In this document: positions 3,181-20,782 of the stretch, in pieces
Numbering within the stretch: position 1 is the first letter of the stretch
Layout of the letters: every line of letters starts with the position of its first letter
The notes under the pieces: model-generated
Told to the model about the DNA's origin: nothing
Database searches by the model: none
The model's input: the letters and a program-made list of their open reading frames with translations, nothing else
Made by a program: the position numbers and the translations under genes
IMG/VR virus record: IMGVR_UViG_3300032324_000909
Span: 1-64,000 of that record
DNA: 64,000 nt
Direction: 5' to 3' (one strand)
DNA from: a virus
Lineage: Duplodnaviria; Caudoviricetes

Positions 3181-3258
3181 GTAAGTAACTGGGTATTAAA
3201 CACTTGCGCGAGCCGGGCTGGGCCCGGCGTCATAAGTTGCTATGGGTGAGGGGTTTAG
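3181..3258 (+). repeat. composite intergenic element R1 (core 3212-3228, dyads on both sides)
   Basis: GCCGGGC-TGG-GCCCGGC; left dyad GTAAGT..ACTTGC 3181-3207; degenerate right dyad 3232-3258. Confidence 0.8.
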
Positions 3259-3340
3259 GTAAATTGTAAAAATCCGCAGAAAGTTCTTGTGCATGGAATC
3301 AAGAAAGTCTATTATGAAGGCTCACACAATACCAAACACC

Positions 3341-5581
3341 ATGATACAAAACACCTCATACAACTCGCTCAACTCTGCTGGAATCAAGTCTGCCGTTAGC
3401 TTCGGCATCAAAGATACTGGTCTGGCGCATATCTTCAATGTTCTTCGGAACCAACTCTACACCGACAAGATCGGTGCTGTCGTGCGCGAATACTCTGCCA
3501 ACGCTTACGATGCCAATGTTGAAGCTGGCAAGCCTAATTGCCCTATTACTATCACCATGCCTAGCAAGCTGTCCAAGGTTTTCAAGATCAGGGATTTTGG
3601 TCGTGGCCTTTCAGAGCAGGACATTCAAGACATCTACTGCTTCTATGGTGAAAGCACGAAACGCCAGAGTAACGCATTTATCGGTCAACTTGGACTAGGT
3701 TCAAAGAGTGCGTTCGCCTATGGTGACAACTTTGTTATCAATTCCTTTACGGATGGCAAGGTTCGTTCTTACAATGCGTTTATTGATCCTAGCGGAATCG
3801 GTCAGATTGCCCTTCTGTCCACGCAGGACACCACAGATGAGAATGGTGTAGAGATCGTTATTCCAGTTAAGGGTGAGGATGCAAATTACTTCACGGGTGC
3901 TGTCAAGCGTTACCTCCGTTTCTTCAAGGTTCGCCCGAACATTGTAGGCGTGGACAAGGGTGAGTATGATAAGGTTTTTGCCAAGCCGATTTCCGTAGGT
4001 GCTGGCTGGGCTTTCTATGATAATCGTGAAGATCATCGCCCAATGGCAGTTATGGGCAACATCGCCTATCCGATTGACAGAAGTGCATTGAAGTTCATTT
4101 CTGGTAACGATGCAGATACGCAGATTAGTTATCTGTTCAATAGTGCTATCGTTATTGATTTTAACATTGGAGACTTGGATGTTGCGGCAAGCCGCGAGGG
4201 TCTGCAATACACCGATAGGACGATTGCGAACATCAAGAGCAAGGCAGGAGAGATTATCAAGACGCTTGTTACTGATATTCAAAAGCAGATCACGCAAAAC
4301 GCAAAGAGCGAGTATGCGGCGAAAAAGTTTATGTCCGAGATGGATAACCTTGTTAGCGGTTTCCATTATATCCGACAGATCGTTAAAAAGATTACCTTTA
4401 ACGGCAAGATTGTTACCTCTGATAATGTCGATACTACCCGAAAGAGTGCGGATCGTAGCTTGCGCTTTCATGTCATGCGCTATCGCAAGAATTGGAACGG
4501 CAATGTTCAGACTACCAACCTTAACGAGTTTGGGGCTAGGCATGACATTCAATTAGTTTTTAATGACCTTGGACATTACAACGCTGGTGCAAAGTATGGT
4601 CGTTACCTTGCTTCGCAGTCTGGTGATCGTGAGACTATTTATCTGTTCACGATTCAGCGTATGGAAGTTGTCAATGGCGCGGAAGTGCTGAAGGCTCTCA
4701 AGCCAGAGCAGTATGCGACCTACGCACAACAGATTGCGGAACTAAAAGAGGCAAATGGTTTCTGTGATGAGGATTTTATCTTCGCCTCGCAGATCAGCAT
4801 TCCCGTTAATGCAGTTGGAATAACCACCCCCAAATCAAAGCGTGTCGGTGCTTTGGTTCTTGATCCTAAAAATGCTAATTCTTGGAAGAATCGTAACGCT
4901 TGGAAGGATTGTGTTGTGGATGAGAAGAACGGCAACGGAATCTATGTCCAGATCAATAATTTCCATGCGGTCATAAATGGCGGCGATAAGATGGTAGGTA
5001 GTTTACTTCTTGATCTAGTTCAGCCTTTCAAGAACATTGATCCTGCAAACATCGTTGGCTTTACTAGCACACAACTCAAGAAAAAGATGGGTAGCGGATG
5101 GGTTCGCCTTGAGGACAAGATGCAAGAAGAGTTTGACGCTTTTATCTCTGCAAACAAAATCGACATTGATCTTTTGCTTGCAAATCGTTTAGGCAATACC
5201 ATGTTGCGCGACTCTTTCTTCTATCGTCTCCAAGACAAGAAGCATCAAGACTTGCTCATGTCACTTATCAAGAGCGACGATGATCGTGCAACTCTTCGTG
5301 ACCTGTTCGCTTGTGTTAATTCTCACAACAACGATGCAAACTCAAAGTCGAAAGAGCAAATTGCCCTTATGCTTATCAGTAAGATCGAAAGGCTTGACAT
5401 CGCCGCAGGAAACGCTTCGGGTAAAAACGAGAAGGCAGTTAAGATTGCAGAGGAAGTTGTGAATCGTGCGAAAGCCTTGCAGAAAAAGTTTCCTCTCCTC
5501 TCCTATATTGAGGAACGCAATATGCGCTGGGGCTTTAGTGCAGATTTTGCCAAGGTGCTTTCGGACTACATGAACGCATAA
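3341..5581 (+). CDS. rIIA: rIIA-like protein (GHKL/HATPase N-terminal domain)
   Basis: LYTDKIGAVVREYSANAYDA, IRDFGRGLS, STKRQSN, GQLGLGSKSAFAY; next to rIIB; promoter TTGTGC-N17-TATTAT upstream. Confidence 0.85.
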   Translation: MIQNTSYNSLNSAGIKSAVSFGIKDTGLAHIFNVLRNQLYTDKIGAVVREYSANAYDANVEAGKPNCPITITMPSKLSKVFKIRDFGRGLSEQDIQDIYCFYGESTKRQSNAFIGQLGLGSKSAFAYGDNFVINSFTDGKVRSYNAFIDPSGIGQIALLSTQDTTDENGVEIVIPVKGEDANYFTGAVKRYLRFFKVRPNIVGVDKGEYDKVFAKPISVGAGWAFYDNREDHRPMAVMGNIAYPIDRSALKFISGNDADTQISYLFNSAIVIDFNIGDLDVAASREGLQYTDRTIANIKSKAGEIIKTLVTDIQKQITQNAKSEYAAKKFMSEMDNLVSGFHYIRQIVKKITFNGKIVTSDNVDTTRKSADRSLRFHVMRYRKNWNGNVQTTNLNEFGARHDIQLVFNDLGHYNAGAKYGRYLASQSGDRETIYLFTIQRMEVVNGAEVLKALKPEQYATYAQQIAELKEANGFCDEDFIFASQISIPVNAVGITTPKSKRVGALVLDPKNANSWKNRNAWKDCVVDEKNGNGIYVQINNFHAVINGGDKMVGSLLLDLVQPFKNIDPANIVGFTSTQLKKKMGSGWVRLEDKMQEEFDAFISANKIDIDLLLANRLGNTMLRDSFFYRLQDKKHQDLLMSLIKSDDDRATLRDLFACVNSHNNDANSKSKEQIALMLISKIERLDIAAGNASGKNEKAVKIAEEVVNRAKALQKKFPLLSYIEERNMRWGFSADFAKVLSDYMNA

Positions 5582-5603
5582 AGATTGTTGTGGTGAGGGA
5601 AAC

Positions 5604-5645
5604 GGGGGCGAGGCTATGTGGTGTGGCCTCGCTCCTAACCTTTTT
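5604..5645 (+). terminator. intrinsic terminator
   Basis: GCGAGGC...GCCTCGC hairpin followed by T-tract. Confidence 0.6.
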
Positions 5646-5684
5646 AATACCAGACAGAAACGCCACGATTTTTAGTAACTAACA

Positions 5685-5731
5685 TCCGGGCGGGGCCCGG
5701 CGCTGCAAGTGCCTGATAACCAGTGGTTTGT
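5685..5731 (+). repeat. composite element R2
   Basis: tCCGGGC-GGG-GCCCGGC-gct-GCAAGT gcc TGA taa CCA gtg GTTTGT. Confidence 0.8.
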
Positions 5732-5798
5732 GACTATTCGATTTTTATTCAAAAAAATGCTTGTGGGGCTATACAAGAAAATGTATGATGAAGGAGTT

Positions 5799-6665
5799 AT
5801 GAACATCCCATACATCCTAACCGATAACTCACTAACCGCAATCCTCAACGGAACTCCTTACACGATTCAAAGTTCCCACGAGAATTGGGCAAATGTTATC
5901 GAGGCAGTCAAGCAGGGAGTCAGCGAAGATGAACTCCTTGATCTCATCGACACCGCAAGTGTAGTCTCCGATTGGTCGGAGGGTAGTGTCGAAGTCGTAG
6001 ATGGTCATGTCTACTTCAATGGTGAAGTCGTGCATGGAACTATTGTGGACAAGATTTTGGCCTTTATCAAGGAAGGAATCTCTCCTACTCCTTTGGTCAA
6101 GTTCCTTACCCGTCTGATGCAGAACCCTAGTCGCCGTAGCGTAACGGAACTCTATTCGTTCCTTGAGCATGGCAATATGCCTATCACGCCTGATGGCTAT
6201 TTCCTCGGCTATAAGAGCGTTCGCTCGGATTGGACTGACCATCACACGGGCAAGTTCTCTAACAAGGTCGGAGAGATTCTTGAGATGTCCCGTAACTCGG
6301 TTTGCGATGACGCTAATCTTGGTTGCAGTTATGGCTTCCATGTTGGTTCGCTTGAGTATGCGACCACCTTTGGAGGTAGCGACCGCAAGGTTGTGATCGT
6401 TAAGGTTGACCCTGCCGATGTTGTTTCGGTTCCTCACGACTGCGACTTCCAGAAGATGAGGACTTCTCGTTATGAGGTTGTCGGAGTGTTTGACGCTCCG
6501 CTTCCTAACGGCTACTACGATGGCTACGAGGACGAAGACGAGGACGATGGTTACGAAGAGGAATACAGCGACTACGATGGCGAGGTCTACGGACGCAAGC
6601 CTAATGGTGATCGCTTTCACAATGTGCGCGACTCCAAGGGAAGGTTTGTTGCGAAGAGGGCTTAA
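5799..6665 (+). CDS. rIIB: rIIB-like protein
   Basis: LYSFL..ITPDGYFLGYKSV, CSYGFHVG, VKVDPADVVSVP; start re-called after TTGTGG-N17-TATGAT. Confidence 0.85.
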   Translation: MNIPYILTDNSLTAILNGTPYTIQSSHENWANVIEAVKQGVSEDELLDLIDTASVVSDWSEGSVEVVDGHVYFNGEVVHGTIVDKILAFIKEGISPTPLVKFLTRLMQNPSRRSVTELYSFLEHGNMPITPDGYFLGYKSVRSDWTDHHTGKFSNKVGEILEMSRNSVCDDANLGCSYGFHVGSLEYATTFGGSDRKVVIVKVDPADVVSVPHDCDFQKMRTSRYEVVGVFDAPLPNGYYDGYEDEDEDDGYEEEYSDYDGEVYGRKPNGDRFHNVRDSKGRFVAKRA

Positions 6666-6682
6666 GAGGTAGGGGGAAACAG

Positions 6683-6722
6683 AAGTCGTCCCTAGTGTAA
6701 AAGCTAGGGGCGATTTTCTTTT
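6683..6722 (+). terminator. intrinsic terminator
   Basis: GTCGTCCCTAG/CTAGGGGCGAT stem plus T-tract. Confidence 0.7.
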
Positions 6723-6733
6723 GAAAGATTTTA

Positions 6734-6807
6734 CGGAGTGTAGCACAGCTTGGTAGTGCGCTTGCTTTGGGAGCAAGAAGTCGCAGGTTCGAATCCTGTC
6801 ACTCCGA
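6734..6807 (+). tRNA. tRNA-Pro(UGG)
   Basis: Cloverleaf; anticodon arm CTTGC-TTTGGGA-GCAAG; no encoded CCA. Confidence 0.9.
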
Positions 6808-6882
6808 AACCCTTCAATATCAATAGGTTACAACAGCCCGGCGGAGCCCGGCGCCGTAAGTCGTTCATTATCAATCATTTAT
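6805..6882 (+). repeat. composite element R3 (dyads on both sides, abuts tRNA-Pro 3' end)
   Basis: core GCCCGGC-GGA-GCCCGGC 6836-6852; dyads 6805-6831 and 6856-6882. Confidence 0.85.
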
Positions 6883-7012
6883 ACATATAAAGAATATGTC
6901 GATGCCGTAGACATGTTCTCGGAACGTGTCGATAAAACGCCAAAACGTGTACATGAACAAATTGTAAAAATACTTCTTGCCACTCTGCCCAACTAGTCAT
7001 ATAGTGAAGGTC

Positions 7013-7261
7013 ATGAAAACTCCCAAACCCAAACGTTTCTTCTACCACTATAATAAACCAGCGTCGCGCGCGCTGGGTAAAAATGTCATCACTATTCATT
7101 GGGAAGGCGCTTGCCATCTTGTTAATAAAATTAAAACAATTGGAATTGATGTCGAGAGCCATGACCAGAAGCGGCAGCCACGATGCATTATGCGAGGCCA
7201 CGCAACCAGCGTAATCTTTGCGCACAACGAAGACGGAACGAAAACCGGAATCATTTCATGA
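7013..7261 (+). CDS. hypothetical protein, leaderless
   Basis: TTGCCA-N17-TATAGT-N7-ATG. Confidence 0.65.
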   Translation: MKTPKPKRFFYHYNKPASRALGKNVITIHWEGACHLVNKIKTIGIDVESHDQKRQPRCIMRGHATSVIFAHNEDGTKTGIIS

Positions 7262-7461
7262 GACCACCCGTACTATCGCGCAAGGGTGTCACTGAAGACA
7301 TGCGTTTCTATTGCAAGGATTGCGATCACACCTATTGTGGTGATCAAGTACTGGATGGAAGTTTGGACTTGTTTATTATTCGTGAAGATAGGGCTAACCC
7401 AATGAATTCAACCTTTCGCTGCCATCTTTGCCAAGAAGATGTTGACGATTACTACAATTAA
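7258..7461 (+). CDS. small CxxC/CxxC zinc-binding protein
   Basis: ATGA overlap with upstream gene; CKDC...CHLC. Confidence 0.6.
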   Translation: MRPPVLSRKGVTEDMRFYCKDCDHTYCGDQVLDGSLDLFIIREDRANPMNSTFRCHLCQEDVDDYYN

Positions 7462-7476
7462 TTATAAACTAAAACT

Positions 7477-7971
7477 ATGGGCCAATACTACTACATCGTC
7501 AACCTAGACAAGAAACAATACCTAGACCCTCATGCTTTCGGGCACGGGATGAAGCTTCTTGAGTTCAGCTGTTCTCAGGGTGGAACTAATACCGCCTTAG
7601 CATGTCTGCTTGCTAACAGCAACGGACGTGGTGGTGGAGATCTACATTCTGAAAACCCTATCGTCGGAAGCTGGGCAGGAGATAGGATTGTTGTCGCTGG
7701 TGACTATGCAGAGATTGGAGACCGTGGCGAACTAGACGACAATGAAAATCTATACGGTAAATGCAGTAAAGGAACGTTTGAAAATATTTCTTATAAAATT
7801 ATGGTTGCTCTTGCAGATGACGCTTATATATACGAGGAGCTAGAAGCTACTGCTGTATCCTACAAGGAATGGAATGACGAACATGCAGATCGTATATTGT
7901 GTGCCCTCGCTGAATCCCAAACCGCAATTAGGAAAGAAGAAGCTAGACAGGATAATAAAGTTTCTGTGTAA
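7477..7971 (+). CDS. conserved phage hypothetical protein
   Basis: MGQYYYIVNLDKKQYL...GSWAGDRIV motif. Confidence 0.7.
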   Translation: MGQYYYIVNLDKKQYLDPHAFGHGMKLLEFSCSQGGTNTALACLLANSNGRGGGDLHSENPIVGSWAGDRIVVAGDYAEIGDRGELDDNENLYGKCSKGTFENISYKIMVALADDAYIYEELEATAVSYKEWNDEHADRILCALAESQTAIRKEEARQDNKVSV

Positions 7972-7981
7972 TGATTATAGT

Positions 7982-8076
7982 GGTGGGTTAGTGTAATTGG
8001 ATAGCACCGACAGACTTATAATCTGTGTTCCCTAGATGAGGGACGAGCATGGGTTCGATTCCCATACCCACTTCCA
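7982..8076 (+). tRNA. atypical tRNA, anticodon UAU (nominal Ile), long variable arm
   Basis: GGTGGGT/ACCCACT acceptor, ACAGA-CTTATAA-TCTGT, TCCCT/AGGGA V-arm, T-arm ATGGG-TTCGATT-CCCAT, U73, CCA. Confidence 0.8.
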
Positions 8077-8096
8077 AATTAAAACAAAATAAAAAT

Positions 8097-8276
8097 ATGC
8101 ACGTTTGGCCTAATCTATCTATATTCAAAGCAAATAATAAAACACGCAAGTTCACCGCTAATCGCCCAAAGGGTTTAAAGGACGAGGAATGGCAGGCGAT
8201 GATTGCGGAGTATCGTCTAAATAGGCAGTTGATGACAAATACTGTCCCCAAACTTTCCCGTAAGGAAACCAAATAA
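8097..8276 (+). CDS. small basic hypothetical protein
   Basis: A-rich leader, ATG 8097, lies between tRNAs. Confidence 0.5.
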   Translation: MHVWPNLSIFKANNKTRKFTANRPKGLKDEEWQAMIAEYRLNRQLMTNTVPKLSRKETK

Positions 8277-8282
8277 TTTTAA

Positions 8283-8355
8283 TGCCAAGTAGCTCAGCAG
8301 TAGTAGCGGGAAGCTGTTAACTTCTAGGTCGTAGGTTCGATCCCTACCTTGGCAG
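8283..8355 (+). tRNA. tRNA-Asn(GUU)
   Basis: TGCCAAG/CTTGGCA acceptor, loop CTGTTAA. Confidence 0.85.
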
Positions 8356-8400
8356 TAATTTGTTTGACACTCAAATAAAAAATCTTTATTATTCATCTAT

Positions 8401-8478
8401 GGCTGTGTAGTCCAACCAGGCAGAGACAAGCGACTTAAAATCGCTCAAGTGTCGGTTCGAATCCGACCACAGCTACCA
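8401..8478 (+). tRNA. tRNA-Leu(UAA), short variable loop
   Basis: AGCGA-CTTAAAA-TCGCT, CCA; promoter TTGACA-N17-TATTAT upstream. Confidence 0.85.
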
Positions 8479-8485
8479 ATTTCAT

Positions 8486-8561
8486 CCCCTTGTGGCTTAA
8501 TGGTTAAAGCGAACGGCTCATAACTGTGAGATTGCAGGTTCGAATCCTGCCGGGGGGACCA
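8486..8561 (+). tRNA. tRNA-CAU (probably Ile2/lysidine, or Met)
   Basis: loop CTCATAA, acceptor CCCCTTG/CGGGGGG, CCA. Confidence 0.8.
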
Positions 8562-8570
8562 ATTTAATAT

Positions 8571-8645
8571 GCGTCGTTCATTCAACGGATAGGATCAGAA
8601 ACTTCTAATTTCTCAATGCAGGTTCGATTCCTGCACGACGCACCA
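8571..8645 (+). tRNA. tRNA-Arg(UCU)
   Basis: AGAAA-CTTCTAA-TTTCT, CCA. Confidence 0.9.
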
Positions 8646-8651
8646 AATCTT

Positions 8652-8726
8652 GGGAGTGAAACTTTTAAGGTGAAGTATCGGTCTTTTAAACCGACTAAGA
8701 GGGTTCAAGTCCCTCCACTCCTACCA
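8652..8726 (+). tRNA. tRNA-Lys(UUU)
   Basis: TCGGT-CTTTTAA-ACCGA, CCA. Confidence 0.9.
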
Positions 8727-9219
8727 AATCTAGTCCGTTATGGTCAAACTCCCAATGATGATTGGGGCACAATAAAATTAAATTATCCTTATGATTAATA
8801 TCTGAAAGTTTTGCGTCATCTGGAAAATCTGAAATAGATTTTTTATGCGCTACTTCTGCGTGTGCATTATATCCACATATACTACAAATTTTAGGTACAT
8901 CCTTTAAAATTATCTTTCTAGCATGCCATCTTATATAGGCATAAGCCGCACCATGACTATGCTTTTCATAAACCATTTCATTTTTACTAGGGTTTCTATT
9001 ATAGAGTAAATTATCTTTTCTCTGTTGTTTGCATTCATGACAATAACAATGTCGTGGTAATTCTTTTTTGAGAAATTGTCTTTTACAGCTTTTGCATGTT
9101 CTAAATCCTGCAGTCCTTTTTGGGCTAGTTCTATTGTGGAAAGATGCCGAACAACTTTGAGAGCAAAACTTTTTTTGTTCTCGGCCTTTTAATTCTTGAT
9201 TGCAATTAAAACATTTCAT
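8695..9219 (-). CDS. HNH endonuclease with N-terminal Cys-rich zinc motifs
   Basis: CSICG..EVAHKK..NLILLCPNHHWEFD; antisense within the tRNA cluster. Confidence 0.85.
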   Translation of the reverse strand: MKCFNCNQELKGREQKKFCSQSCSASFHNRTSPKRTAGFRTCKSCKRQFLKKELPRHCYCHECKQQRKDNLLYNRNPSKNEMVYEKHSHGAAYAYIRWHARKIILKDVPKICSICGYNAHAEVAHKKSISDFPDDAKLSDINHKDNLILLCPNHHWEFDHNGLDLVGVEGLEPS

Positions 9220-9279
9220 ACAATATATTATACTGAATCGAAATACAAATCAATAAAAAAATACAAATTTCATTTTCGA

Positions 9280-9354
9280 GTCCTCATAGTGTAATGGTTA
9301 GCATACGGCTCTTTCACAGCCATGGTAGGGGTTCAAATCCCCTTGAGGATGCCA
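9280..9354 (+). tRNA. tRNA-Glu(UUC)
   Basis: loop CTTTCAC, acceptor GTCCTCA/TGAGGAT, CCA. Confidence 0.9.
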
Positions 9355-9360
9355 AATAAT

Positions 9361-9438
9361 GCGTCAGTGCCTGAGTAGCCCAAAGGAAGGGTCTGCAAAA
9401 CCCTAAAGCCGTAGGTGCAAATCCTACCTGACGCTCCA
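9361..9438 (+). tRNA. tRNA-Cys(GCA)
   Basis: AGGGT-CTGCAAA-ACCCT, U73, CCA. Confidence 0.9.
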
Positions 9439-9523: not shown

Positions 9524-9544
9524 AGCTTTTCCCCTTCCTGCTGA

Positions 9545-14050: not shown

Positions 14051-14731
14051 TTAGGGCTGAAGGACAAAGCCCGAAGCGTCTTTCTTGCCCTTGCCCTTGG
14101 CGACTAGGCCGACGATCACACCCTTGTCATCCAGAAAGCGTAGATCGGTGTCGTCGCCGTTCACAACCTTTTTTCCAAGGTAGGTTTCAGGGAGTGAACC
14201 AGCAAACACCGCCGCGATGTTTCCGCCCATGCTTGCAATCAATTCAACCATTGCCTGATTATTTTCCTTTCTTGAAAAGGTAAGGTGATAATTTTTCGGC
14301 AACTCACCGCGCAAGTGTGCGATCATGCGTTTAGGGTTCGGCGTGTAGTCGTAAAAGGTGACATCTTGGAACTCTTTCATGTCGATAAGATTTTCCCAAG
14401 GGAGATCCGAAAGCACATTTAGACGCACCGCGAGCTTCATGCCCTTCCGCTTTGAGGTTTTAATTGCCGAACGGATTTCCTTGTTCAGTTGTCCAAGGAA
14501 AGTTTCCTTTTGTTCGATGAAGTAACGCGACTTTTTCAGTCGTGCCGCTTGCACATTAGAAAAAACACCCATGCCCGAAGTGTTGAGGCAAGCCGCCGCG
14601 CATCCTGCCGAAGCATGGGAACAAAAGTTTTTGCCGGAAAGATTGTAAGGTGACAGGGACAGGCCAAGCGTAAGCCAACCGAGTTTTTCGCCCTTTTTGA
14701 TTTTCGTGTTGTTTGGTGATAGGAGTTTCAT
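14051..14731 (-). CDS. GP88-family phage protein
   Basis: CSHASAGCAAAC, RLNVLSDLPW, FYDYT, NYHLTFS, DLRFLD. Confidence 0.75.
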   Translation of the reverse strand: MKLLSPNNTKIKKGEKLGWLTLGLSLSPYNLSGKNFCSHASAGCAAACLNTSGMGVFSNVQAARLKKSRYFIEQKETFLGQLNKEIRSAIKTSKRKGMKLAVRLNVLSDLPWENLIDMKEFQDVTFYDYTPNPKRMIAHLRGELPKNYHLTFSRKENNQAMVELIASMGGNIAAVFAGSLPETYLGKKVVNGDDTDLRFLDDKGVIVGLVAKGKGKKDASGFVLQP

Positions 14732-14783
14732 GGTTTATATGTTGGCAGAGTTTCGTTGTTCGGTAAAGATATTTTTTACAATT

Positions 14784-15290
14784 TTATTCATTATTGCACC
14801 AGTCACTTTGACCTTCGCGGATTGCGTGACCCTCTGGCACACGATCAGTTGACCAGCCCATGAAGTTTTCCCTTGGTAGTGCCTTGAAAGTATCCGTTGC
14901 CGCTTGTAGTGCATCCGCTTTGAACTTTTCGGCGTTGCCCTTGTATTGCGCGGAGATTGGAGAATCTTGCCAAAGCCTAATGTTTTCCCATGTAAGACCG
15001 CGCACGATGTCGGCTTCAGTTGTCAAGAAGTAGGCGAATCTCTCGCCAATGTAGTGCAGGAAACCATCTCCCAGCGTTTGCCCGTTGCTTGCCCATCCTC
15101 CCTCCTCGTCGATGTTGCTTGTGACATTTGCCCCTGCAATTCCGAGATTGAAAAAACGATTGAAAGAGCGTTCGATCTGTGTCTTGGTTCCAGAAAGGCC
15201 AAGTGCCAAGCCGTTTCCATAACATGAAATCATCTCGTTAGCGAAGGCGTGAAGGGTTGCGTGTGGGGGTTGCGTTGTGTTGGTTGTCAT
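14784..15290 (-). CDS. hypothetical protein, leaderless
   Basis: TTGCAA-N17-TAGTCT-N6-ATG. Confidence 0.7.
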   Translation of the reverse strand: MTTNTTQPPHATLHAFANEMISCYGNGLALGLSGTKTQIERSFNRFFNLGIAGANVTSNIDEEGGWASNGQTLGDGFLHYIGERFAYFLTTEADIVRGLTWENIRLWQDSPISAQYKGNAEKFKADALQAATDTFKALPRENFMGWSTDRVPEGHAIREGQSDWCNNE

Positions 15291-15368
15291 AGGTAAAGAC
15301 TACGATCAGGCGCGACGGATTGCAAAACCTTTTTCACTTTTTCTGAAACTTTTTTTGTGCGAAACTTG

Positions 15369-15527
15369 TTGACAGCCCGCAGAGCCTGTGTTTATGCGGC
15401 TCCGTGGGTTATTCAATCCCCAGCCCATGCCCTGCTTCTAGAGCCTGTGTTTATGCGGCTTCGACATTGTAAGACAACTCGCCCGGCGGGGCCCGGCGTT
15501 GTAAGTAGTTGAAGATCAGCGACTTAG
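15369..15527 (+). repeat. composite element R9 with upstream 59-bp-period direct repeats
   Basis: units at 15380 and 15439, box 15467, core 15481-15497, dyad 15501-15527. Confidence 0.9.
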
Positions 15528-15949
15528 AAAGATTGCGTCTCTCGGAGGTATGTTAGGCGATGATTAGATATTAAGTAAGCCTCTTCTAGACGCTGAAGCG
15601 GACGATTTAATCCCGTGTCGTAAATTGTTCCGTTTATGATAGCAAAAGCGTGAACATTAGTTGCGACATAGTAGCGACCAGTTGGGTTCTCTTTAATGAA
15701 CCTCCCAATCGTTACACTTTTGTAATGCTTTTTCTTATATGCTATGCCATACTCTCGTTTGGCATACTTCAAAAGTTTTTCTGGACTAAATCCTTTTTTA
15801 TTCTTGCGTCCTGCTTCCGCTCCGATCTTGTGCGCAAATTTGTATGGGATGCCTGCACTAATCGCCAAAGCTCGGATTGTGCAATCTCCTTTCTCTTCGA
15901 TTCCAGAACTAGAGCGGCCTCCGTCTGTTGCATTTGTTTTTAATTGCAT
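15524..15949 (-). CDS. conserved phage hypothetical protein (DC-xx-RA / H motif)
   Basis: GDCTIRALA...HAFAIINGTIYD; stop codon inside the R9 dyad. Confidence 0.65.
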   Translation of the reverse strand: MQLKTNATDGGRSSSGIEEKGDCTIRALAISAGIPYKFAHKIGAEAGRKNKKGFSPEKLLKYAKREYGIAYKKKHYKSVTIGRFIKENPTGRYYVATNVHAFAIINGTIYDTGLNRPLQRLEEAYLISNHRLTYLRETQSF

Positions 15950-16011
15950 TTTTATTTGTTTACGACAAAAGCCCGACTAGGGAGACGCTTCCCCCTAGTC
16001 GAGCAAGGCAA

Positions 16012-16281
16012 TTAGGCGATCAGTTCAAACCTGACAATGCGATCCAAGCGGAACCTACGGATATCATCCACAGCAGGGACATAACAGGTGATTCCCTCGC
16101 CAGCAGGAGAGTTGACACCCTTGTCCTCTTTATAGAAGAACTTTCCGAAAGGACGGGAAACATGATACTCCTTCGGCTCAAAGCGATTCGACTCTGCCTT
16201 GTAAACGATGCGGTAGGTCTTGCACAATCCGATGGCATAAGCAATCTTGATGAACATGAGGTTGAGGTTTAGTTTTTTCAT
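16012..16281 (-). CDS. small WYL/SH3-like protein
   Basis: C-terminal IRRFRLDRIV motif; hairpin terminator at ~15968-16005. Confidence 0.55.
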   Translation of the reverse strand: MKKLNLNLMFIKIAYAIGLCKTYRIVYKAESNRFEPKEYHVSRPFGKFFYKEDKGVNSPAGEGITCYVPAVDDIRRFRLDRIVRFELIA

Positions 16282-16347
16282 TGTTTTGTTTTGTTGGTTG
16301 TGTTGGTGTTTAGTGTGATTCTATTTTTACAATTTTTGTGCGTGGTG

Positions 16348-16554
16348 TCAAGAGACGATTTCGATGCTTTGTGATGCCCTATATGCGCCGATCATGTCGC
16401 GGATGCGGTTGTTCTGTAGCTTCACAAGTCCGCTAGTCGCGCCCCAGTATTTCACCGCTTCGCGACGGCTCTTGATTTCGTTCTGAATTGAAATCGCGAG
16501 GAAGGTGCGGATGTTGCAGACATTGTTGAAGTTGAGGGATGCTTTCTTTTTCAT
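16348..16554 (-). CDS. hypothetical protein, paralog of 20367-20576
   Basis: LNFNNVCNIRTFLAISI..EIKSRRE.V.YWG shared with the paralog. Confidence 0.75.
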   Translation of the reverse strand: MKKKASLNFNNVCNIRTFLAISIQNEIKSRREAVKYWGATSGLVKLQNNRIRDMIGAYRASQSIEIVS

Positions 16555-16631
16555 GATTAAAGAATACTATGCGCCCACAAAAAAACCCAGAAAAAAATGC
16601 GGCTAGGCGAAACTTTTTTTTGCGAAAAGGC

Positions 16632-16734
16632 TTGACAAGATTCGCGCACTATGATATAAGATGTATGACAATTGTCTTGCATTGTTTACCGGGCGGGGCC
16701 GGGCGCTGTAACCCTTTGATTATCAGCGACTTAT
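16632..16734 (+). repeat. composite element R10 with inward promoter
   Basis: TTGACA-N17-TATAAG, two boxes, core 16688-16704, dyad 16708-16734. Confidence 0.9.
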
Positions 16735-16980
16735 GAATACTGGCGTATACTCTCCGACATATGCGCCAAGGATGTTAAATTCAAAGTATTCTTCAGCCTC
16801 TTCGCGACTCATTCCGTCCAACATTAGTTTGAGAATTATTTTCTCGACATCGTATGCCAGAACATCAACGGAACCGCAACGAGAAGCAACGCCGATTACC
16901 GCATCATCAAAGCCGTCTGCCTTGAGAACATCGGGATCCACCCTTTCCAAAAGTTCTTCAAGATTAAACTCCATAATCAT
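16723..16980 (-). CDS. conserved phage hypothetical protein
   Basis: ADGFDDAVIG..YD..EEAEEYFEFNILGAYVGEYTP. Confidence 0.75.
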   Translation of the reverse strand: MIMEFNLEELLERVDPDVLKADGFDDAVIGVASRCGSVDVLAYDVEKIILKLMLDGMSREEAEEYFEFNILGAYVGEYTPVFISR

Positions 16981-17137
16981 CTCCTATATCAAAACGATCT
17001 TCATAGGATGCATCCAGATAATCGTCTGGCTGACTCTCCCGTGGTTCGTCCATGTCTCTCGGCGTATGACCAAGCTCATGCTCATCGTTGTAGATTTCGG
17101 GTTCGTTTTCGTCGTGGTTGGGGTCTGTCATAGTCAT
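16964..17137 (-). CDS. small acidic protein
   Basis: D/E-rich ORF in operon context. Confidence 0.55.
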   Translation of the reverse strand: MTMTDPNHDENEPEIYNDEHELGHTPRDMDEPRESQPDDYLDASYEDRFDIGDDYGV

Positions 17138-17141
17138 AGTA

Positions 17142-17360
17142 TTAGCTATTTTTATTTGAATTGCTAGACTTAAAAAGTATTTGAGCAAGCCAAGTAATGC
17201 CTATCGCTTGGAGATAGGTAATCGTCTTGATTCCGAAAATTGCGGGCATTAGCCAGTTCCAGAGAAAGGCTACCAGAACAGCGTTAAGGAATACAATTAA
17301 TCCCCCAAGACAAACTGCACTCATGAGTAATACAATTTTTTCAGAGAGTTCCTTGTTCAT
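17142..17360 (-). CDS. small membrane protein, leaderless
   Basis: LWNWLMPAIFG..ITYLQA; TTGACC-N17-TTTAAT-N6-ATG. Confidence 0.7.
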   Translation of the reverse strand: MNKELSEKIVLLMSAVCLGGLIVFLNAVLVAFLWNWLMPAIFGIKTITYLQAIGITWLAQILFKSSNSNKNS

Positions 17361-17391
17361 AATCTTATTAAAGTATTTTTTGGTTATGGGG

Positions 17392-17598
17392 TCAAGCCTC
17401 TTCGATGGTAATCTTAAACTTCTGATCGGCTGTATTCCATTGAGTCGATTCGATAAAGAATCTGGTCATCTTTGCGTTGGAAGTGACAACTGGGTTTGCA
17501 AGTGTAGCCCAGCCTACATCGTAATCAGTAATAGAAGAAATGATAAGGTCGGCAATCTCTTCCTTTGTTAGGGCTGTTGGGGCTTTCTTGTTTTTCAT
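17392..17598 (-). CDS. hypothetical protein
   Basis: own TTGACA promoter overlapping the upstream stop. Confidence 0.6.
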   Translation of the reverse strand: MKNKKAPTALTKEEIADLIISSITDYDVGWATLANPVVTSNAKMTRFFIESTQWNTADQKFKITIEEA

Positions 17599-17629
17599 AC
17601 TATGATGAGTATATTTTTTGGTTATAGTG

Positions 17630-17857
17630 TCAAGCCTCTCCGATTGCCCTTGCGAATGCGCGGAAGTCGTTAATCAGTCCAGAGACATTGCCGGTAGTCT
17701 CGCAGAACGCAAGGCCAAAGGTAATTGCCGCATCACGCTCAACCTGTATTTGCAGGAGTTTCTTTACCATCTCACGGCGAGGAACATTTGCCGTTGCCTC
17801 TTCAAAGGCATTAAGCATAAGATCAAAATCCATTTTATTAAAATTGTTTTTAATCAT
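17630..17857 (-). CDS. hypothetical protein
   Basis: start re-called to MIKNNF. Confidence 0.55.
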   Translation of the reverse strand: MIKNNFNKMDFDLMLNAFEEATANVPRREMVKKLLQIQVERDAAITFGLAFCETTGNVSGLINDFRAFARAIGEA

Positions 17858-17867
17858 ATTATTATTT

Positions 17868-18074
17868 TTAGACTTTAAGGCTATTGATTGCATTGTGCAA
17901 GGAATCATATGCACACGCTTTTTTGAATGTTGCTTGGTTGAAGTTTGGATTAATGTCCTTGAAGGTATCACAGAGGGCATCAATCATCTCTCTACCCTTC
18001 CAGTAATCCACTTCCCCACTTTCCATTAGGGGCTTTATCTTTGAAGCTATTTTAATGAAGTGTTTTTTAGTCAT
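17868..18074 (-). CDS. conserved phage hypothetical protein
   Basis: MTKKHFIKIA...NPNFNQATFKKAC. Confidence 0.7.
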   Translation of the reverse strand: MTKKHFIKIASKIKPLMESGEVDYWKGREMIDALCDTFKDINPNFNQATFKKACAYDSLHNAINSLKV

Positions 18075-18083
18075 ATTGTTTTC

Positions 18084-18350
18084 TTATTTGATACCAAGGG
18101 AACGGACGCGCTTGCTTTCAGCCTCTTCCATTTTCTTTGAATAGTAAGTGCCGTCTTGAAACGGAGCTTGTGCGAACGAGACATCGTTCCATTTGAAGCT
18201 AGGAATGCCCCAGCTATTTGTTTCATAGAATGCCGCGCCGTGCTTAATGGCGAGATGCCGCCAGTAGAGGGAAGTTGCGAGTGAGTCAACCAGTCCAAAG
18301 GAGAGGGCGACGATTGCGATGATACCGATTTGCTTTGTGGTGTTTTTCAT
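18084..18350 (-). CDS. membrane-anchored protein, leaderless
   Basis: TTGACA-N17-TTTAAT-N6-ATG; N-terminal TM helix. Confidence 0.7.
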   Translation of the reverse strand: MKNTTKQIGIIAIVALSFGLVDSLATSLYWRHLAIKHGAAFYETNSWGIPSFKWNDVSFAQAPFQDGTYYSKKMEEAESKRVRSLGIK

Positions 18351-18388
18351 AAAGTAATTAAAAAGGATTTTTATTCAGTTGTCAAGTA

Positions 18389-18520
18389 TCAGAACCAAGC
18401 ATTCGGGTTGCCATGCTCTGCGACGAGTTTTTCCATCTCGTCAATCCATGCCTCGTATTCGGCGGCATAGGCGGCGAGATCATCCATTGCTAGTTCCTTC
18501 GGGTTCATTTCGTTTTCCAT
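18389..18520 (-). CDS. small acidic protein, leaderless
   Basis: TTGCAC-N16-TATTCT-N6-ATG. Confidence 0.6.
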   Translation of the reverse strand: MENEMNPKELAMDDLAAYAAEYEAWIDEMEKLVAEHGNPNAWF

Positions 18521-18617
18521 GATTAGAGAATACCACAAAGGGATCCGTGTGCAATAATTATTTATAAAAAAATTTCGACCGGATGGGAGAAATGGCTTGA
18601 CAACACGTGGTGCGAGA

Positions 18618-18680
18618 ATGTATGACAACGCGCGCCGGGCGGGGCCGGGCGCTGTAAGTGCTTGGCTATTATGGATTTAC
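18618..18680 (+). repeat. composite element R11
   Basis: box 18618, core 18634-18650, dyad 18654-18680. Confidence 0.9.
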
Positions 18681-18952
18681 CACTCCCCCTGATCTCCTTC
18701 TATATACTCGTTGTAGTAGTCGTCGCCCCCATAGAGGTCTACGGGGTCTTCCGCTGTAGGACAAGCGGCCTTATCTGCCTCCATCATACTCGCCTCGTAT
18801 TCCGCCATTTCACGCGCATGGATCGCGTCCTCACGGGCTTGCAGCTCTGCGTGTGTGGGCTCGTAAACCTCCTCGCATTGCTGACGACAAAGGAGGTCGT
18901 CGAGAACGACAGAGGCGGCGGTGAGATCGGTGGTGGTGTTGATGTTGTTCAT
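18677..18952 (-). CDS. acidic hypothetical protein, leaderless
   Basis: TTGCGT-N16-TATTCT-N6-ATG; stop codon inside the R11 dyad. Confidence 0.65.
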   Translation of the reverse strand: MNNINTTTDLTAASVVLDDLLCRQQCEEVYEPTHAELQAREDAIHAREMAEYEASMMEADKAACPTAEDPVDLYGGDDYYNEYIEGDQGEW

Positions 18953-19028
18953 AGATACAGAATAGCAAGAGGCCACCAGAACGCAATAAAAACTTTCATC
19001 AAATTAAAAATTATTTTTTATTTTATAC

Positions 19029-19105
19029 TTGACTACTCGCTTGTCTTACAGTATACTTGCCCGGCGGGGCCGGGCTCTGTAAGTCCCTGATCCTCAACAC
19101 TTTAT
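19029..19105 (+). repeat. composite element R12 with inward promoter
   Basis: TTGACT-N17-TATACT with box TTGTCTTACAG in the spacer, core 19059-19075, dyad 19079-19105. Confidence 0.9.
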
Positions 19106-19214
19106 AGAGACAGCTCTCTCAGAATACCTAACATGTAGAAACGCCAATTTTTTGGCCTATTAATCAAGCAATTTATATGTAGTGAGATTCTATGTAGGCT
19201 CATGTTATATTATA

Positions 19215-19526
19215 TTAGTATTGATTGTTTTTGTGGCACCATTCAGTCATGGCGTTAGAGGTGTTGCTGTAAGACGCATCAAACTCCTCCCTGCTCATGT
19301 AAGACTCCTTGAGACCAAGGAGGACAGACATGTTCACCAGATTTCCGTCATGCCGAAGCAACGGAACATCACCGCTAGAAACCGACATGTTGCGAAGAGT
19401 TGCGCGGTCGTCGCCCTCGTAAACGAAAGTTTCGTTTTCGTGAGAGTAGACCTTGCCAACCACAAGCGCGGCGAGTTTCTGCTTTGCCTGTTCCCTGATT
19501 GCTTCTTTGGTGTTCGTGTTGTTCAT
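19215..19526 (-). CDS. hypothetical protein, leaderless
   Basis: TTGACA-N16-AATAAT-N6-ATG. Confidence 0.65.
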   Translation of the reverse strand: MNNTNTKEAIREQAKQKLAALVVGKVYSHENETFVYEGDDRATLRNMSVSSGDVPLLRHDGNLVNMSVLLGLKESYMSREEFDASYSNTSNAMTEWCHKNNQY

Positions 19527-19567
19527 GATTTGATTATTTCAGTTTTTGCGATTTTGTCAACAGGAGA

Positions 19568-19786
19568 TTAGAAAAAGTTTTCATGCGCCAACTGGTTTAC
19601 CAGTTCGCCATTTTCCTCGGTGAGTTGCTCTAACTCCTCGTCATCCAAGGCAGTTCCATCGTTCATCCAAACCGCCTCACCGATGAAGGCATCTGCGAAG
19701 TCTGGATAGTCAGCGCGATTCACGCCTTCAATGTTGATTGACTGGGAATCAACTTCCCTTCCGTTTAGTGTCAGTTTCGTTTTCAT
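19568..19786 (-). CDS. conserved phage hypothetical protein, leaderless
   Basis: IEGVNRADYPDFADAFI; TTGCTT-N17-TACATT-N6-ATG. Confidence 0.75.
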   Translation of the reverse strand: MKTKLTLNGREVDSQSINIEGVNRADYPDFADAFIGEAVWMNDGTALDDEELEQLTEENGELVNQLAHENFF

Positions 19787-19864
19787 GATTAAAATGTATC
19801 ATGCGCCCATGAGAAAAGCAACAGGTATTTTTTTGTTTTTTTAAATTTTTTTTGCAGAAAATGC

Positions 19865-19967
19865 TTGACACTGGCTGAGCAACTATGATATAACAAGTAA
19901 GAGATTGTAAGACAACGCGCGCCCGGCGGGGCCCGGCTTCGTAAGTCGTTGATTATCAGGGCTTTGT
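19865..19967 (+). repeat. composite element R13 with inward promoter
   Basis: TTGACA-N18-TATAAC, box 19905, core 19921-19937, dyad 19941-19967. Confidence 0.9.
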
Positions 19968-19968
19968 G

Positions 19969-20100
19969 TTAATCCCGTTCGGCCCGATGTTTAGCTCTCC
20001 TTTTATAGAGCTTTTTTGAAGCAATTAACTTCTGCAGGGGTGCAAAGCGTTGACGCTTGCGGATGTCTTTCACTTGTATGACAAAGCGTTCGGTGTTCAT
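19969..20100 (-). CDS. 43-aa basic peptide
   Basis: MNTERF...SKKLYKRRAKH. Confidence 0.55.
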   Translation of the reverse strand: MNTERFVIQVKDIRKRQRFAPLQKLIASKKLYKRRAKHRAERD

Positions 20101-20104
20101 GTGA

Positions 20105-20335
20105 TTATTCGTTCGGGCAATTTTCCCAATACCATTCATTGTATGACAACGCCCATTCCTGCTCAAAGGCCGTCATCTGCGCCCCTGTGTAAACAAAGGC
20201 CCTCATCAGTTGACGCTTGATGATCCCCAAGTCGCACTCCTCAAAGCTCCTCTCAACGAGGGTGGAAAGCTCGCGGTCGTTAACGGCGCGGAGCATGAGT
20301 TCGGAGGTGGTGTTGTGTGTGATGTCGGTTTTCAT
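20105..20335 (-). CDS. hypothetical protein, leaderless
   Basis: TTGACA-N17-GAAACT-N6-ATG. Confidence 0.6.
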   Translation of the reverse strand: MKTDITHNTTSELMLRAVNDRELSTLVERSFEECDLGIIKRQLMRAFVYTGAQMTAFEQEWALSYNEWYWENCPNE

Positions 20336-20366
20336 ATTCATAGTTTCGTCTTTTGGTGTTGCCGTG

Positions 20367-20576
20367 TCAAAACTTTATTTCGATTCCTTTCGCCGCCCTG
20401 TATGCCATGACCATGTCACGCACACGCTGATTGTGCAGTTTAGCCATTGCGCTAGATGCGCCCCAGTAAGTCACAGTTTCGCGTCGTGACTTGATTTCCC
20501 CCTTGATCGAAAGGGCGAGGTAAGTGCGGATGTTGCACACGTTGTCAAAGTTGAGAGGGGCGGTCTTGTTCTTCAT
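20367..20576 (-). CDS. hypothetical protein, paralog of 16348-16554
   Basis: start re-called to MKNKTAPL, 6 nt after -10 TATCTT. Confidence 0.75.
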   Translation of the reverse strand: MKNKTAPLNFDNVCNIRTYLALSIKGEIKSRRETVTYWGASSAMAKLHNQRVRDMVMAYRAAKGIEIKF

Positions 20577-20708
20577 GGTTTTAAGATAGGGCATGGCGGC
20601 CTTTTTTAGAAGATATTTTTTTCTTTTTTGTAAACTTTTTTTTGCGAAAAGGCTTGACACTACCGGCGAAGAAAGCCGCGCCACACGCGACCATCTTCGC
20701 TTATTATG

Positions 20709-20782
20709 TTGTCATACAATTGTCTTGCATCGTATGCCCGGCGGGGCCCGGCGTTGTAAGTCGTTGATTCTCAGGGCTTTAG
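20709..20782 (+). repeat. composite element R14
   Basis: boxes TTGTCATACAA and TTGTCTTGCAT, core 20736-20752, dyad 20756-20782. Confidence 0.9.

Follow-up and report, generated by a model that had tools for sequence, protein, structure and literature searches.

The promoter-early stem-loops (PeSLs) of T4-type phages are the nearest known counterpart of the element described here. PeSLs are stem-loops that are read as terminators and lie just upstream of a promoter (PMC2839356, PMC4122927). The present element resembles them in that short composite motifs recur intergenically in a variable region crowded with small orphan genes, a sigma-70-type promoter is accompanied by a GC-rich palindrome, and the junctions of some differences between close relatives fall at the motif, with no dedicated recombinase known. 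A first-pass annotation of this DNA had drawn the same comparison, which is apt, as the elements are located between small genes of a variable region near sigma-70-like promoters and one 425-bp cassette is joined within an element. The PeSL layout (palindrome upstream of promoter) is present in the copies of the rII block and in distant relatives, with U-tract and covariation absent; in the minus-strand block, transcription from the strong promoter would enter the element. However, the palindromes here carry no RNA signal or U-tract, and relatives have separate terminators; PeSLs lack the rigid spacing and the IHF-like 27-bp palindrome; and half of the present copies have a strong promoter reading into the element. 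An intrinsic terminator (GC hairpin with a direct U-tract) was rejected as a description of the element, because a T-run was found after neither core nor dyad on either strand, except in the variant at 9477, and the core centre is mispaired in two thirds of the copies. No published description of the element was found in the literature.

Mu Pe and lambda pL are IHF-assisted phage early promoters. As in these, the dyad of the present element fits the IHF consensus WATCARNNNNTTR and precedes a promoter by a few turns, at discrete distances, but here a perfect mirror pair of overlapping consensus sites is predicted, joined to a GC block and repeated 14-fold. RIB/RIP (BIME-1) of E. coli and the Correia elements of Neisseria are repeats with IHF sites. 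They are likewise GC-rich palindromic units with an IHF site, intergenic, multicopy and found at the ends of transcription units; however, they are host chromosomal repeats with no sequence similarity to the present composite, which gave 0 matches in 185,579 bacterial and archaeal species genomes. A REP/BIME-type host repeat with many copies per chromosome was rejected on that count, and the earlier caution that the motif might be an ordinary host repeat applies to the dyad alone, which is highly amplified in a few genomes, and not to the composite. N4-type hairpin promoters, which are used by a phage single-subunit RNA polymerase, have a stem of 5-7 bp whose 3-nt purine loop lies on the template strand. 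The core is of this shape, and the strand with its G-rich loop would serve as template in the minus-strand block and as non-template in the rII block. A search with PF00940 (single-subunit RNA polymerase) returned nothing, as did its control.

The element is carried by an uncultured phage (record of 140,531 bp) and was studied within the first 64,000 nt of that record (the window) and then genome-wide. No cultured close relative of the phage was found, and its lineage differs from the T4-type phages. The element is a rigid 47-bp DNA unit composed of a GC-rich double heptamer (the core) and a palindrome (the dyad). The core pattern GCCSGGC-N3-GCCSGGC, with at most one mismatch, has 13 matches in the window (0.01 expected in shuffled sequence), and the whole record contains the same 13 cores only, all at 3,212-20,752. 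The statement that none occurs in 22-64 kb can accordingly be extended to the 140.5-kb genome, in which no core lies beyond 20.8 kb. Fourteen cores had been annotated; 13 are intact, and the one at 10409 (minus strand) is real but decayed, giving 14 copies at 3.2-20.8 kb. The cores are intergenic, as had been noted, and several dyads run into the stop codon of the upstream minus-strand gene. The copies sit among small orphan genes that differ between relatives, with promoters adjoining the elements, and the region codes for ~30 small proteins outside any known family. The following features were located.

3182-3258, plus strand: element 1, with decayed upstream palindrome (3182-3208), core (3212-3228) and dyad (3232-3258), 28 nt 5' of the rIIA promoter
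3287-3315, plus strand: rIIA promoter-like site, TTGTGC-17-TATTAT; -35 starts 28 nt past the dyad; CA-rich leader; ATG at 3341
5685-5731, plus strand: element 2, flanked by the rIIA terminator (5604-5636) and the rIIB promoter
5761-5789, plus strand: rIIB promoter-like site, TTGTGG-17-TATGAT; -35 starts 29 nt past the dyad; ATG at 5799
6836-6882, plus strand: element 3, 28 nt past tRNA-Pro; loop GGA; IHF-like half arm upstream
9477-9526, plus strand: element 4, past tRNA-Cys, at the convergence with a minus-strand Ogg-like gene; variant with arms GTAAC/GTTAC kept and centre replaced; TTTT next
10379-10455, minus strand: element 5, decayed core (10409-10425) between dyads 10379-10405 and 10429-10455; the ancestral double-dyad layout
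11840-11886, minus strand: element 6, dyad end 6 nt before the minus-strand promoter TTGACA-17-TATACT (11833-11805)
12778-12824, plus strand: element 7, downstream of a DUF932 gene and its terminator; plus-strand promoter 12708-12737
13878-13924, plus strand: element 8, between the GP88 and DUF932 genes; plus-strand promoter 13767-13794
15481-15527, plus strand: element 9, dyad overlaps the stop codon of the minus-strand gene 15524-15949; plus-strand promoter 15369-15397
16688-16734, plus strand: element 10, dyad overlaps the stop codon of the minus-strand gene 16723-16980; plus-strand promoter TTGACA-17-TATAAG (16632-16660)
18634-18680, plus strand: element 11, left end of the 425-bp cassette missing in the relative G003; plus-strand promoter 18597-18626
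19059-19105, plus strand: element 12, right end of the 425-bp cassette; plus-strand promoter TTGACT-17-TATACT (19029-19057), ending 1 nt before the core
19921-19967, plus strand: element 13; plus-strand promoter TTGACA-18-TATAAC (19865-19894), T-rich tract upstream
20736-20782, plus strand: element 14, the last, abutting the stop codon of the minus-strand gene 20783-21097
12752-20718, no single strand: TGTAWGACAA motifs at 12752, 13865, 15468, 16662, 18619, 19041 (minus strand), 19906 and 20709 (minus strand)

The TGTAWGACAA motif occurs singly or as 20-bp palindromes and overlaps the plus-strand promoters. Eleven of its 12 genome copies lie within the first 22 kb, and a relaxed pattern places the motif at 11.8-21.8 kb.

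The layout of the element is core, 3 bp and 27-bp dyad, YAANNNNYTGATWATCARNNNNTTR. The fixed spacing claimed earlier was confirmed with one exception, the copy at 9477, in which the arms are kept and the centre is swapped for an unrelated 15-nt segment. The decayed core at 10409 (minus strand) reads GACCAAGGGGGCCAGGC and has a palindrome on either side; in this element and in that at 3212, a second, decayed palindrome lies across the core from the first. The two central bases of the core had been thought to switch between C and G independently, which fails: among 172 unique copies, G/C was found 58 times, G/G 57, C/C 54 and C/G 3 (chi-square p = 2.6e-8 for dependence). Many copies are orthologues, so that the copy counts given here and below overstate the independent evidence. 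Orthologous copies retain even the variable dyad positions, with diverged flanks. Neighbouring copies in one genome share core variants where orthologues differ, which suggests concerted evolution of the cores.

Both arms of the dyad fit the 13-bp IHF consensus (10.1101/382655) in 160 copies, in which the R, Y and W positions vary within their class only. A23 and A24 are present in 100% of these copies and T30, A38, T44 and T45 in 95-96%, with a pyrimidine at Y22 (100%) and Y29 (96%) and a purine at R39 (96%) and R46 (95%). Conservation of the dyad also extends past the consensus, for example at G21, G25 and T26.

Predicted strong promoters within ~100 nt of an element comprise 27 upstream and 19 downstream in the same sense, versus 3 and 1 in the opposite sense. 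The -35 box starts 6, 9-10, 15-19 or 28-31 nt from the dyad end, and none starts at 20-27 nt. Nearly all small genes have their own promoter-like site ~35 nt before the ATG, and an attC/sfx-type array of promoterless cassettes in one orientation under a common promoter was rejected for this reason. In the block of minus-strand genes, strong plus-strand promoters precede the element by 0-50 nt and are directed into it, and then antisense into the preceding gene. An operator or roadblock fits this arrangement better than an upstream activator does, and this counts against the explanation preferred below. One class of 13 copies has the -10 box directly against the core, so that the transcript would start inside the core and lack its 5' arm.

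Five related viral contigs carry the element in 4 to 15 copies each, and it was also found at 68 metagenome loci. The statement that 12 of 14 copies are co-oriented is true of this phage and of G003, a relative with 97% identity, but three others (G001, G002 and G004) have the rII segment in reverse, elements included, so that element orientation tracks the local gene block. A polar scaffold for first-injected DNA, as had been suggested, was not borne out, since relatives do not share the common direction and the elements are oriented like the promoters next to them. Distant contigs, with DUF932, GP88 and RuvB-like homologues 41-50% identical, have a palindrome, a GC spacer of 13-25 bp and a second palindrome, with separate canonical terminators on the other side of the element. 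Two IHF-like palindromes around a GC-rich spacer, placed between early cassettes and close to early promoters, are present at eight loci (L024, L052, L066, L072, L096, L103, L115 and L130), and the centre-to-centre distance of such double dyads clusters at 41-43 and 49-51 bp. By eye, four lineages (L024, L072, L115 and L130) have exactly 28 nt from the element to the -35 box of a leaderless promoter. As reconstructed from these comparisons, the putative ancestral form is palindrome, GC spacer and palindrome with a promoter at fixed distance, which 2 or 3 copies here appear to retain. In the present lineage, one palindrome has apparently mostly decayed, the spacer has been frozen as GCCSGGC-N3-GCCSGGC with its heptamers 10 bp apart, and an operator-like motif and an inward-facing promoter have probably been gained.

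The best explanation, held with about even confidence, is that the element is an architectural module of double-stranded DNA at the edges of early transcription units, carrying an IHF/HU-type site, with exchange as a by-product. It rests on the conservation of the element, the lack of RNA covariation, the consensus fit, the promoter link, the relatives and one exact recombinant; the identity of the binder, the bending and the effect on transcription are what we infer. The 27-bp dyad would be a strong site for an IHF/HU-type DNA-bending protein. No HU/IHF family gene was found in the phage, so that the host is the most likely source of this protein. The GC block of 17 bp, which is invariant and lies 3 bp away from the dyad, could act as a stiff, melting-resistant clamp or as the seat of a second factor. 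Once bound and bent, the module would set the geometry of the neighbouring sigma-70-type promoter, and it may also insulate the small cassettes from each other; cassettes would occasionally be lost, gained or flipped at the elements, as at PeSLs. Conservation past the consensus, the patchy bacterial dyad and the near-absent C/G core count against the IHF/HU-type reading.

If this reading is right, a whole clade of large environmental phages arranges its early promoters and cassette boundaries around an undescribed rigid protein-DNA fold. It would offer a handle on how dozens of small, fast-evolving early genes, many of them probably anti-host, are timed or insulated, a sequence tag for locating the early regions of uncultured phage genomes, and a candidate high-affinity site, amplified a thousand-fold in some bacteria, of an IHF/HU-type or unknown protein. 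The exchange seen here also indicates that cassette turnover in the variable regions of phages can ride on regulatory repeats with no dedicated recombinase, which extends the PeSL idea past T4-type phages. A broader version is more tentative and rather doubtful: a large clade of uncultured phages might share an undescribed nucleoprotein boundary element, composed of a GC clamp and one or two mirror-symmetric sites of 27 bp. By recruiting a DNA-bending protein, it would fold all early promoter regions and divide the early region into micro-domains under separate regulation. The same palindrome, found ~1000-fold in some bacterial chromosomes, would then mark a widespread DNA-binding protein with an unrecognised site.

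The element may instead be bound by a dedicated, as yet unrecognised phage or host protein outside the IHF/HU family. It would then switch off converging early promoters or keep them apart, as an operator or roadblock, and its IHF likeness would be coincidental. The excess of conservation over the IHF consensus points this way, as do the minus-block elements 0-50 nt past strong promoters that are themselves overlapped by the palindromic TGTAWGACAA, the ~30 small family-less proteins encoded in the region and the patchiness of the dyad across bacteria. This reading is nevertheless rather unlikely, since the R/Y variation matches the IHF consensus exactly, the dyad occurs in many bacterial phyla that lack these phage genes, and a DNA-binding domain was found in none of the early proteins. 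It is distinctly improbable that the core and dyad act as two RNA hairpins in the termination, stabilisation, processing or antitermination of early transcripts, in the manner of T7 RNase III or lambda nut sites. Both parts can pair, the neighbouring promoters are of the same sense, and the 9477 variant has two compensatory arm changes between relatives and TTTT after it. Across 150 copies, however, 77.4% of cells are paired versus 78.5% with partners shuffled (500 of 500 shuffles at or above the observed value), the covariation score falls below shuffled values, and fold z-scores of typical copies are -1.4 to +0.9. One perfectly paired core combination is avoided, two thirds of the copies have a mismatch at the central core pair, neither hairpin is followed by a U-tract, RNA would start inside the core in the 13 copies with an abutting -10 box, and relatives have canonical terminators beside the element. 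The R and Y positions in the IHF consensus account for the excess of G-T over A-C on the sense strand (129 versus 76). The earlier proposal that these are protein-binding sites at the DNA level is supported by the lack of compensatory covariation, the weak folds and the -10 box against the core, and the elements behave as such sites rather than as RNA structures.

Dedicated site-specific recombination of the integron or shufflon kind, as previously suggested, is hardly probable at all as the means of moving cassettes. Signs of exchange are present: G003 has a single hybrid element in place of the two elements and the 425 bp between them here, with an exact join inside the element, between core and dyad start; G004 has a truncated promoter directly against the core; and the flipped rII segment of some relatives has elements at its edges. 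About 5 of ~30 alignment ends against G003 fall at elements, with ~2 expected. Synteny is broken at 73 of 125 junctions with an element (58%) versus 77 of 171 without (45%; p = 0.026, the cases not being independent), so that the expected association of breaks with elements exists in mild form, but most breaks lie at junctions without one. Elements are also kept within fully conserved gene orders (in every relative at the DUF932, GP88 and neighbouring junctions), cassettes have their own promoters, and a six-frame search of the whole genome gave no match to PF00589 (tyrosine recombinase) or PF00239 (serine recombinase), whereas controls matched. An identity of 17-50 bp suffices for ordinary recombination, as argued for PeSLs (PMC4122927), and the elements would be substrates for homologous exchange of this kind because the same ~50 bp are repeated at intervals of 0.4-2.6 kb. 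Cassettes are indeed exchanged at the elements, though to a modest extent.

The chance is very small that the element is a selfish REP- or MITE-like repeat that spread through intergenic spaces with no role in the phage. The same gene junctions carry it in relatives at 41-50% protein identity, promoter distances are fixed, copies are limited to one 18-kb region rather than all intergenic spaces, and no transposase or recombinase was found. The sharing of core variants by neighbours where orthologues differ would suit such a repeat, as would the distribution of the dyad in bacteria. On its own, the dyad occurs non-randomly between genes across many bacterial phyla, which speaks for a host-type site; it is almost always intergenic and often arranged in tandem composites. 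In one phylum, it was present in 2 of the 121 genomes sampled. Such sporadic, huge amplification is more in keeping with a mobile repeat or a specialised protein than with a universal nucleoid protein. The amplification of the palindrome alone, about 1000-fold in a few bacterial genomes, is new here; a Microscillaceae MAG has ~1000 copies on each strand and a WOR-3 MAG ~190.

The core pattern GCCSGGC-N3-GCCSGGC was searched for in the complete viral record, which is 140,531 bp long, has two ends that overlap by 123 bp and contributes its bases 1-64,000 to the window. When one mismatch was allowed, 13 matches were found against 0.01 predicted from shuffles, and the whole genome holds just those 13 cores even with three mismatches allowed. 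The copy at 10409 (minus strand) is the fourteenth; its core has decayed and is flanked by two palindromes. The 13 cores lie where the first-pass annotation placed them and its observation is confirmed, as is the fixed layout that it described: in a fixed-register alignment the element is 47 bp long and consists of a 17-bp core, a 3-bp stretch (mostly GCY) and a 27-bp dyad, in which A23, A24, T30, A38, T44 and T45 are invariant. The central bases of the two heptamers were also said to switch independently, which was not borne out. The combinations G/C, G/G, C/C and C/G occur 58, 57, 54 and 3 times, respectively (p = 2.6e-8, far from independent), and one perfectly paired form of the core centre is avoided. 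The first 22 kb has a G+C content of 44.6%, compared with about 35% for the remainder of the genome.

Whether the element works as RNA or as duplex DNA was examined by pooling 150 distinct copies, taken from six viral loci and many metagenome loci, under a two-hairpin pairing model. Paired cells amounted to 77.4%, versus 78.5% when the 3' partners were shuffled among sequences; all of the 500 partner shuffles paired at least as well as the real copies, and the covariation score was lower than in the shuffles. The palindromes are thus kept as sequence and not by compensation. Single-sequence folding gave unremarkable z values (-1.4 to +0.9), with the variant at 9477 as the exception, and the two bases at the centre of the core fail to pair in two thirds of the copies. 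No U-tract follows the core or the dyad palindrome, and an Rfam search over 1-24 kb returned tRNAs only. In 13 copies a near-consensus promoter stops 0-1 nt short of the core, so that the transcript would start within the core. The RNA hairpin reading is rejected on the covariation and folding results, and it is concluded that the element acts as duplex DNA. Lack of covariation, unremarkable folds, mismatched centres and the missing U-tract all support the protein-binding site at the DNA level that had been proposed for it.

The dyad reads as a predicted IHF-type site. The published IHF consensus, WATCARNNNNTTR, places WATCAR between two kinks that are 9 bp from each other (10.1101/382655). 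Both dyad arms fit this consensus in 160 copies, in which the fixed consensus letters are 95-100% conserved, the pyrimidine share is 100% at Y22 and 96% at Y29, and the purine share is 96% at R39 and 95% at R46. At the R and Y positions the changes are transitions, without covariation, which explains the preponderance of G-T over A-C without recourse to RNA. Since the two consensus sites of each dyad overlap at one central W, one protein could sit either way round, or the centre could be occupied by a symmetric dimer. A six-frame search of the whole genome detected no HU/IHF gene (Bac_DNA_binding), and no description of the element was found in the literature on the dyad words, DUF932 and IHF-type phage intergenic repeats.

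The IHF assignment is tempered by the patchy occurrence of the dyad in bacteria. The composite element is absent from 185,579 species genomes, whereas the dyad alone was detected at no fewer than 120 loci in many phyla. The idea that the motif is an ordinary host repeat fails for the composite and applies in part to the dyad alone, which is amplified in a few genomes. With up to two mismatches, it occurs about 1000 times per strand in a Microscillaceae MAG of 6.8 Mb, about 190 times per strand in a WOR-3 MAG of 1.8 Mb and 7-22 times per strand in three other genomes; reversed-pattern controls gave 0 or 1. Only two of 121 sampled genomes from the phylum of the Microscillaceae MAG carry it with one mismatch or fewer. 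Intergenic DNA accounts for 23 of 24 dyad sites in the two rich genomes, where dyads frequently form tandems at intervals of 46-51 bp, the spacers being AT-rich and about 19 bp long. This distribution points to a specialised binding protein or to the amplification of a repeat that formed around a strong protein site. The two MAGs with amplified dyads are unrelated bacteria, and the loci of the dyad-only scan are catalogued as L019-L138.

The coding strand was judged from protein-level conservation in relatives, and the genes are arranged as follows.

Gene blocks by coding strand
1 to 8 kb, plus strand: genes including rIIA, rIIB and the tRNA cluster
9.5 to 21.5 kb, minus strand: minus-strand genes
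From 22 kb, plus strand: plus-strand genes start again

Elements 3212-9477 have the same sense as their genes, as do 10409 and 11870 (both minus strand), and elements 12778-20736 are antisense to the surrounding genes. Five related viral contigs contain 4 to 15 copies each, within about 20 kb. In three of them (G001, G002 and G004) the rII segment is inverted together with its elements relative to this genome and the arrangement of the small-gene block is unchanged, so that element orientation is a local property and not a genome-wide polarity. A scaffold organising the first-injected DNA, as envisaged earlier, is not supported by this pattern. Comparison of window 3212-7300 with loci L012, L013 and L017 revealed that the rIIA-rIIB segment and the next segment are each inverted in place in the same three contigs relative to this genome and the 97%-identical relative G003, with elements at the segment edges.

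Where a near-consensus promoter lies no more than about 100 nt from an element, it nearly always has the element's sense (27 upstream and 19 downstream); 3 upstream and 1 downstream have the opposite sense. Under a looser promoter definition, the -35 box starts 6, 9-10, 15-19 or 28-31 nt after the dyad and never at 20-27 nt, and a control stretch 300 nt away contains about a fifth as many -35 boxes. The rIIA and rIIB promoters lie 28 and 29 nt past the dyad, respectively, and the promoter beyond element 11870 begins 6 nt past it. The rIIA leader is CA-rich, about 25 nt long and kept in relatives.

In the minus block, the order in gene sense starts with a stop codon (often in the dyad), which is followed by the dyad and then the core; after these come one or two copies of TGTAWGACAA, a strong plus-strand promoter facing the element, and the next gene's own promoter. 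The strong plus-strand promoters are preceded by a T-rich upstream tract. TGTAWGACAA, with 11 of its 12 genome copies within the first 22 kb, overlaps these inward-facing promoters in an operator-like manner and is a candidate operator of some repressor. It is found at window 11894-21767, singly or as a 20-bp palindrome. Weaker minus-strand promoter-like sites occupy the same DNA, and each junction may consequently hold a pair of mutually exclusive promoters. The inward-facing promoters are the main feature left without explanation. N4-type hairpin promoters were considered and set aside, as their orientation relative to genes is inconsistent; a search of the genome for an N4-type polymerase gave no match, with the control likewise blank.

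Distant contigs were identified by a dyad-only scan and encode DUF932, GP88 and RuvB-like homologues 41-50% identical to those of this phage. Their layout is a palindrome, a GC-rich spacer of 13-25 bp and a second palindrome. In four lineages (L024, L072, L115 and L130) the distance from element to -35 box is, by eye, exactly 28 nt, and the promoter is placed for a leaderless start. A canonical hairpin-plus-T-run terminator is often present on the other side. Because a separate promoter and terminator flank the element, it is a third part between them and neither of the two. Measured from centre to centre, the dyads of pairs with a GC-rich spacer fall into two clusters, 41-43 and 49-51 bp, the 50-bp form being that of this phage's element family. 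No helical phasing is claimed for the double dyads, since the 42- and 50-bp clusters are not whole turns apart. Homologues of the early genes occur together with double-dyad arrays in contigs L024, L052, L066 and L096, which are binned in an 'Enterobacterales' MAG, and in L072 (210 kb, from a Cellvibrionales MAG); all of these are thus probably phage DNA in bacterial bins. The element is a lineage-specific variant of a widespread and apparently undescribed phage module.

A cassette array recombining at the elements, integron-like or comparable to the PeSLs (promoter-early stem-loops) of T4-type phages, had also been proposed. This genome contains an extra 425 bp relative to G003, exactly between elements 18634 and 19059, where G003 has just one element, flanked on the left as 18634 is and on the right as 19059 is. 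In the related contig G004, one core adjoins a truncated -35 box. Gene-order breaks are only mildly enriched at elements. In a comparison with 17 related sequences, 73 of 125 junctions with an element were broken versus 77 of 171 without (odds ratio 1.7, p = 0.026, cases not independent). In all relatives examined, the DUF932/GP88 junction and the next downstream retain both their neighbours and their element. Variants of the core are common to neighbouring copies in one genome, whereas orthologues differ, which points to exchange among element copies. Six-frame searches of the whole genome detected no tyrosine or serine recombinase (Phage_integrase, Resolvase), RecA or RecT; this result and the intact DUF932/GP88 junctions do not support an integron-like system. 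Together, the 425-bp indel, the mild junction breakage, the missing recombinase and the shared core variants are consistent with sporadic homologous exchange at a regulatory motif present in many copies, and not with a dedicated cassette system. Such exchange has been proposed for PeSLs (PMC4122927), with which the pattern at the present elements agrees, and that comparison is apt.

Pfam scans of 30 early proteins identified DUF932, GP88, an Ogg-like domain, a RuvB-like AAA domain and HNH only, and no cultured relatives were found by DNA and protein search. With 90-97% identity in relatives, the DUF932 gene (12896-13684, minus strand) is the most conserved of the region, and its G+C content is as high as 57%. 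An HNH endonuclease gene (8695-9219, minus strand) is located within the tRNA cluster, and the tRNA region measures 800 bp in this genome versus 1142 bp in G003. A conserved leader of about 110 nt precedes some elements (window 13767-13877 and 15369-15480, with paralogues in L012, L013, L017 and L018). AGAGCYWGTGTTTATGCGGCTCC occurs in it twice, at a distance of about 56 nt, and the two copies enclose a short inverted repeat, UCUACRG ... CYGUAGA, whose 12-nt centre is variable. Consensus folding of the leaders upstream of 13878 and 15481 and their paralogues gave only part of the core and no supported structure.

A restriction-site role for CCSGG was rejected, as 52 of the 80 CCSGG sites lie beyond the first 22 kb and are not limited to elements. 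CCWGG occurs 6 times in 140 kb versus roughly 85 from base composition, and GCCGGC has zero occurrences in the whole genome, which suggests that host restriction sites are avoided. Many small minus-strand genes at window 9545-21500 lack a Shine-Dalgarno sequence and are preceded by a TTGACA-like box, located about 35 nt upstream of the ATG; this box and the TGA stop of the preceding gene often overlap (gcTTGAca). No Shine-Dalgarno was seen upstream of the plus-strand genes at window 22000-64000, where the word GTGTAAAT / TTGTAAAAAT recurs upstream of many start codons, at a distance of 10-25 nt, as a candidate motif of late promoters.
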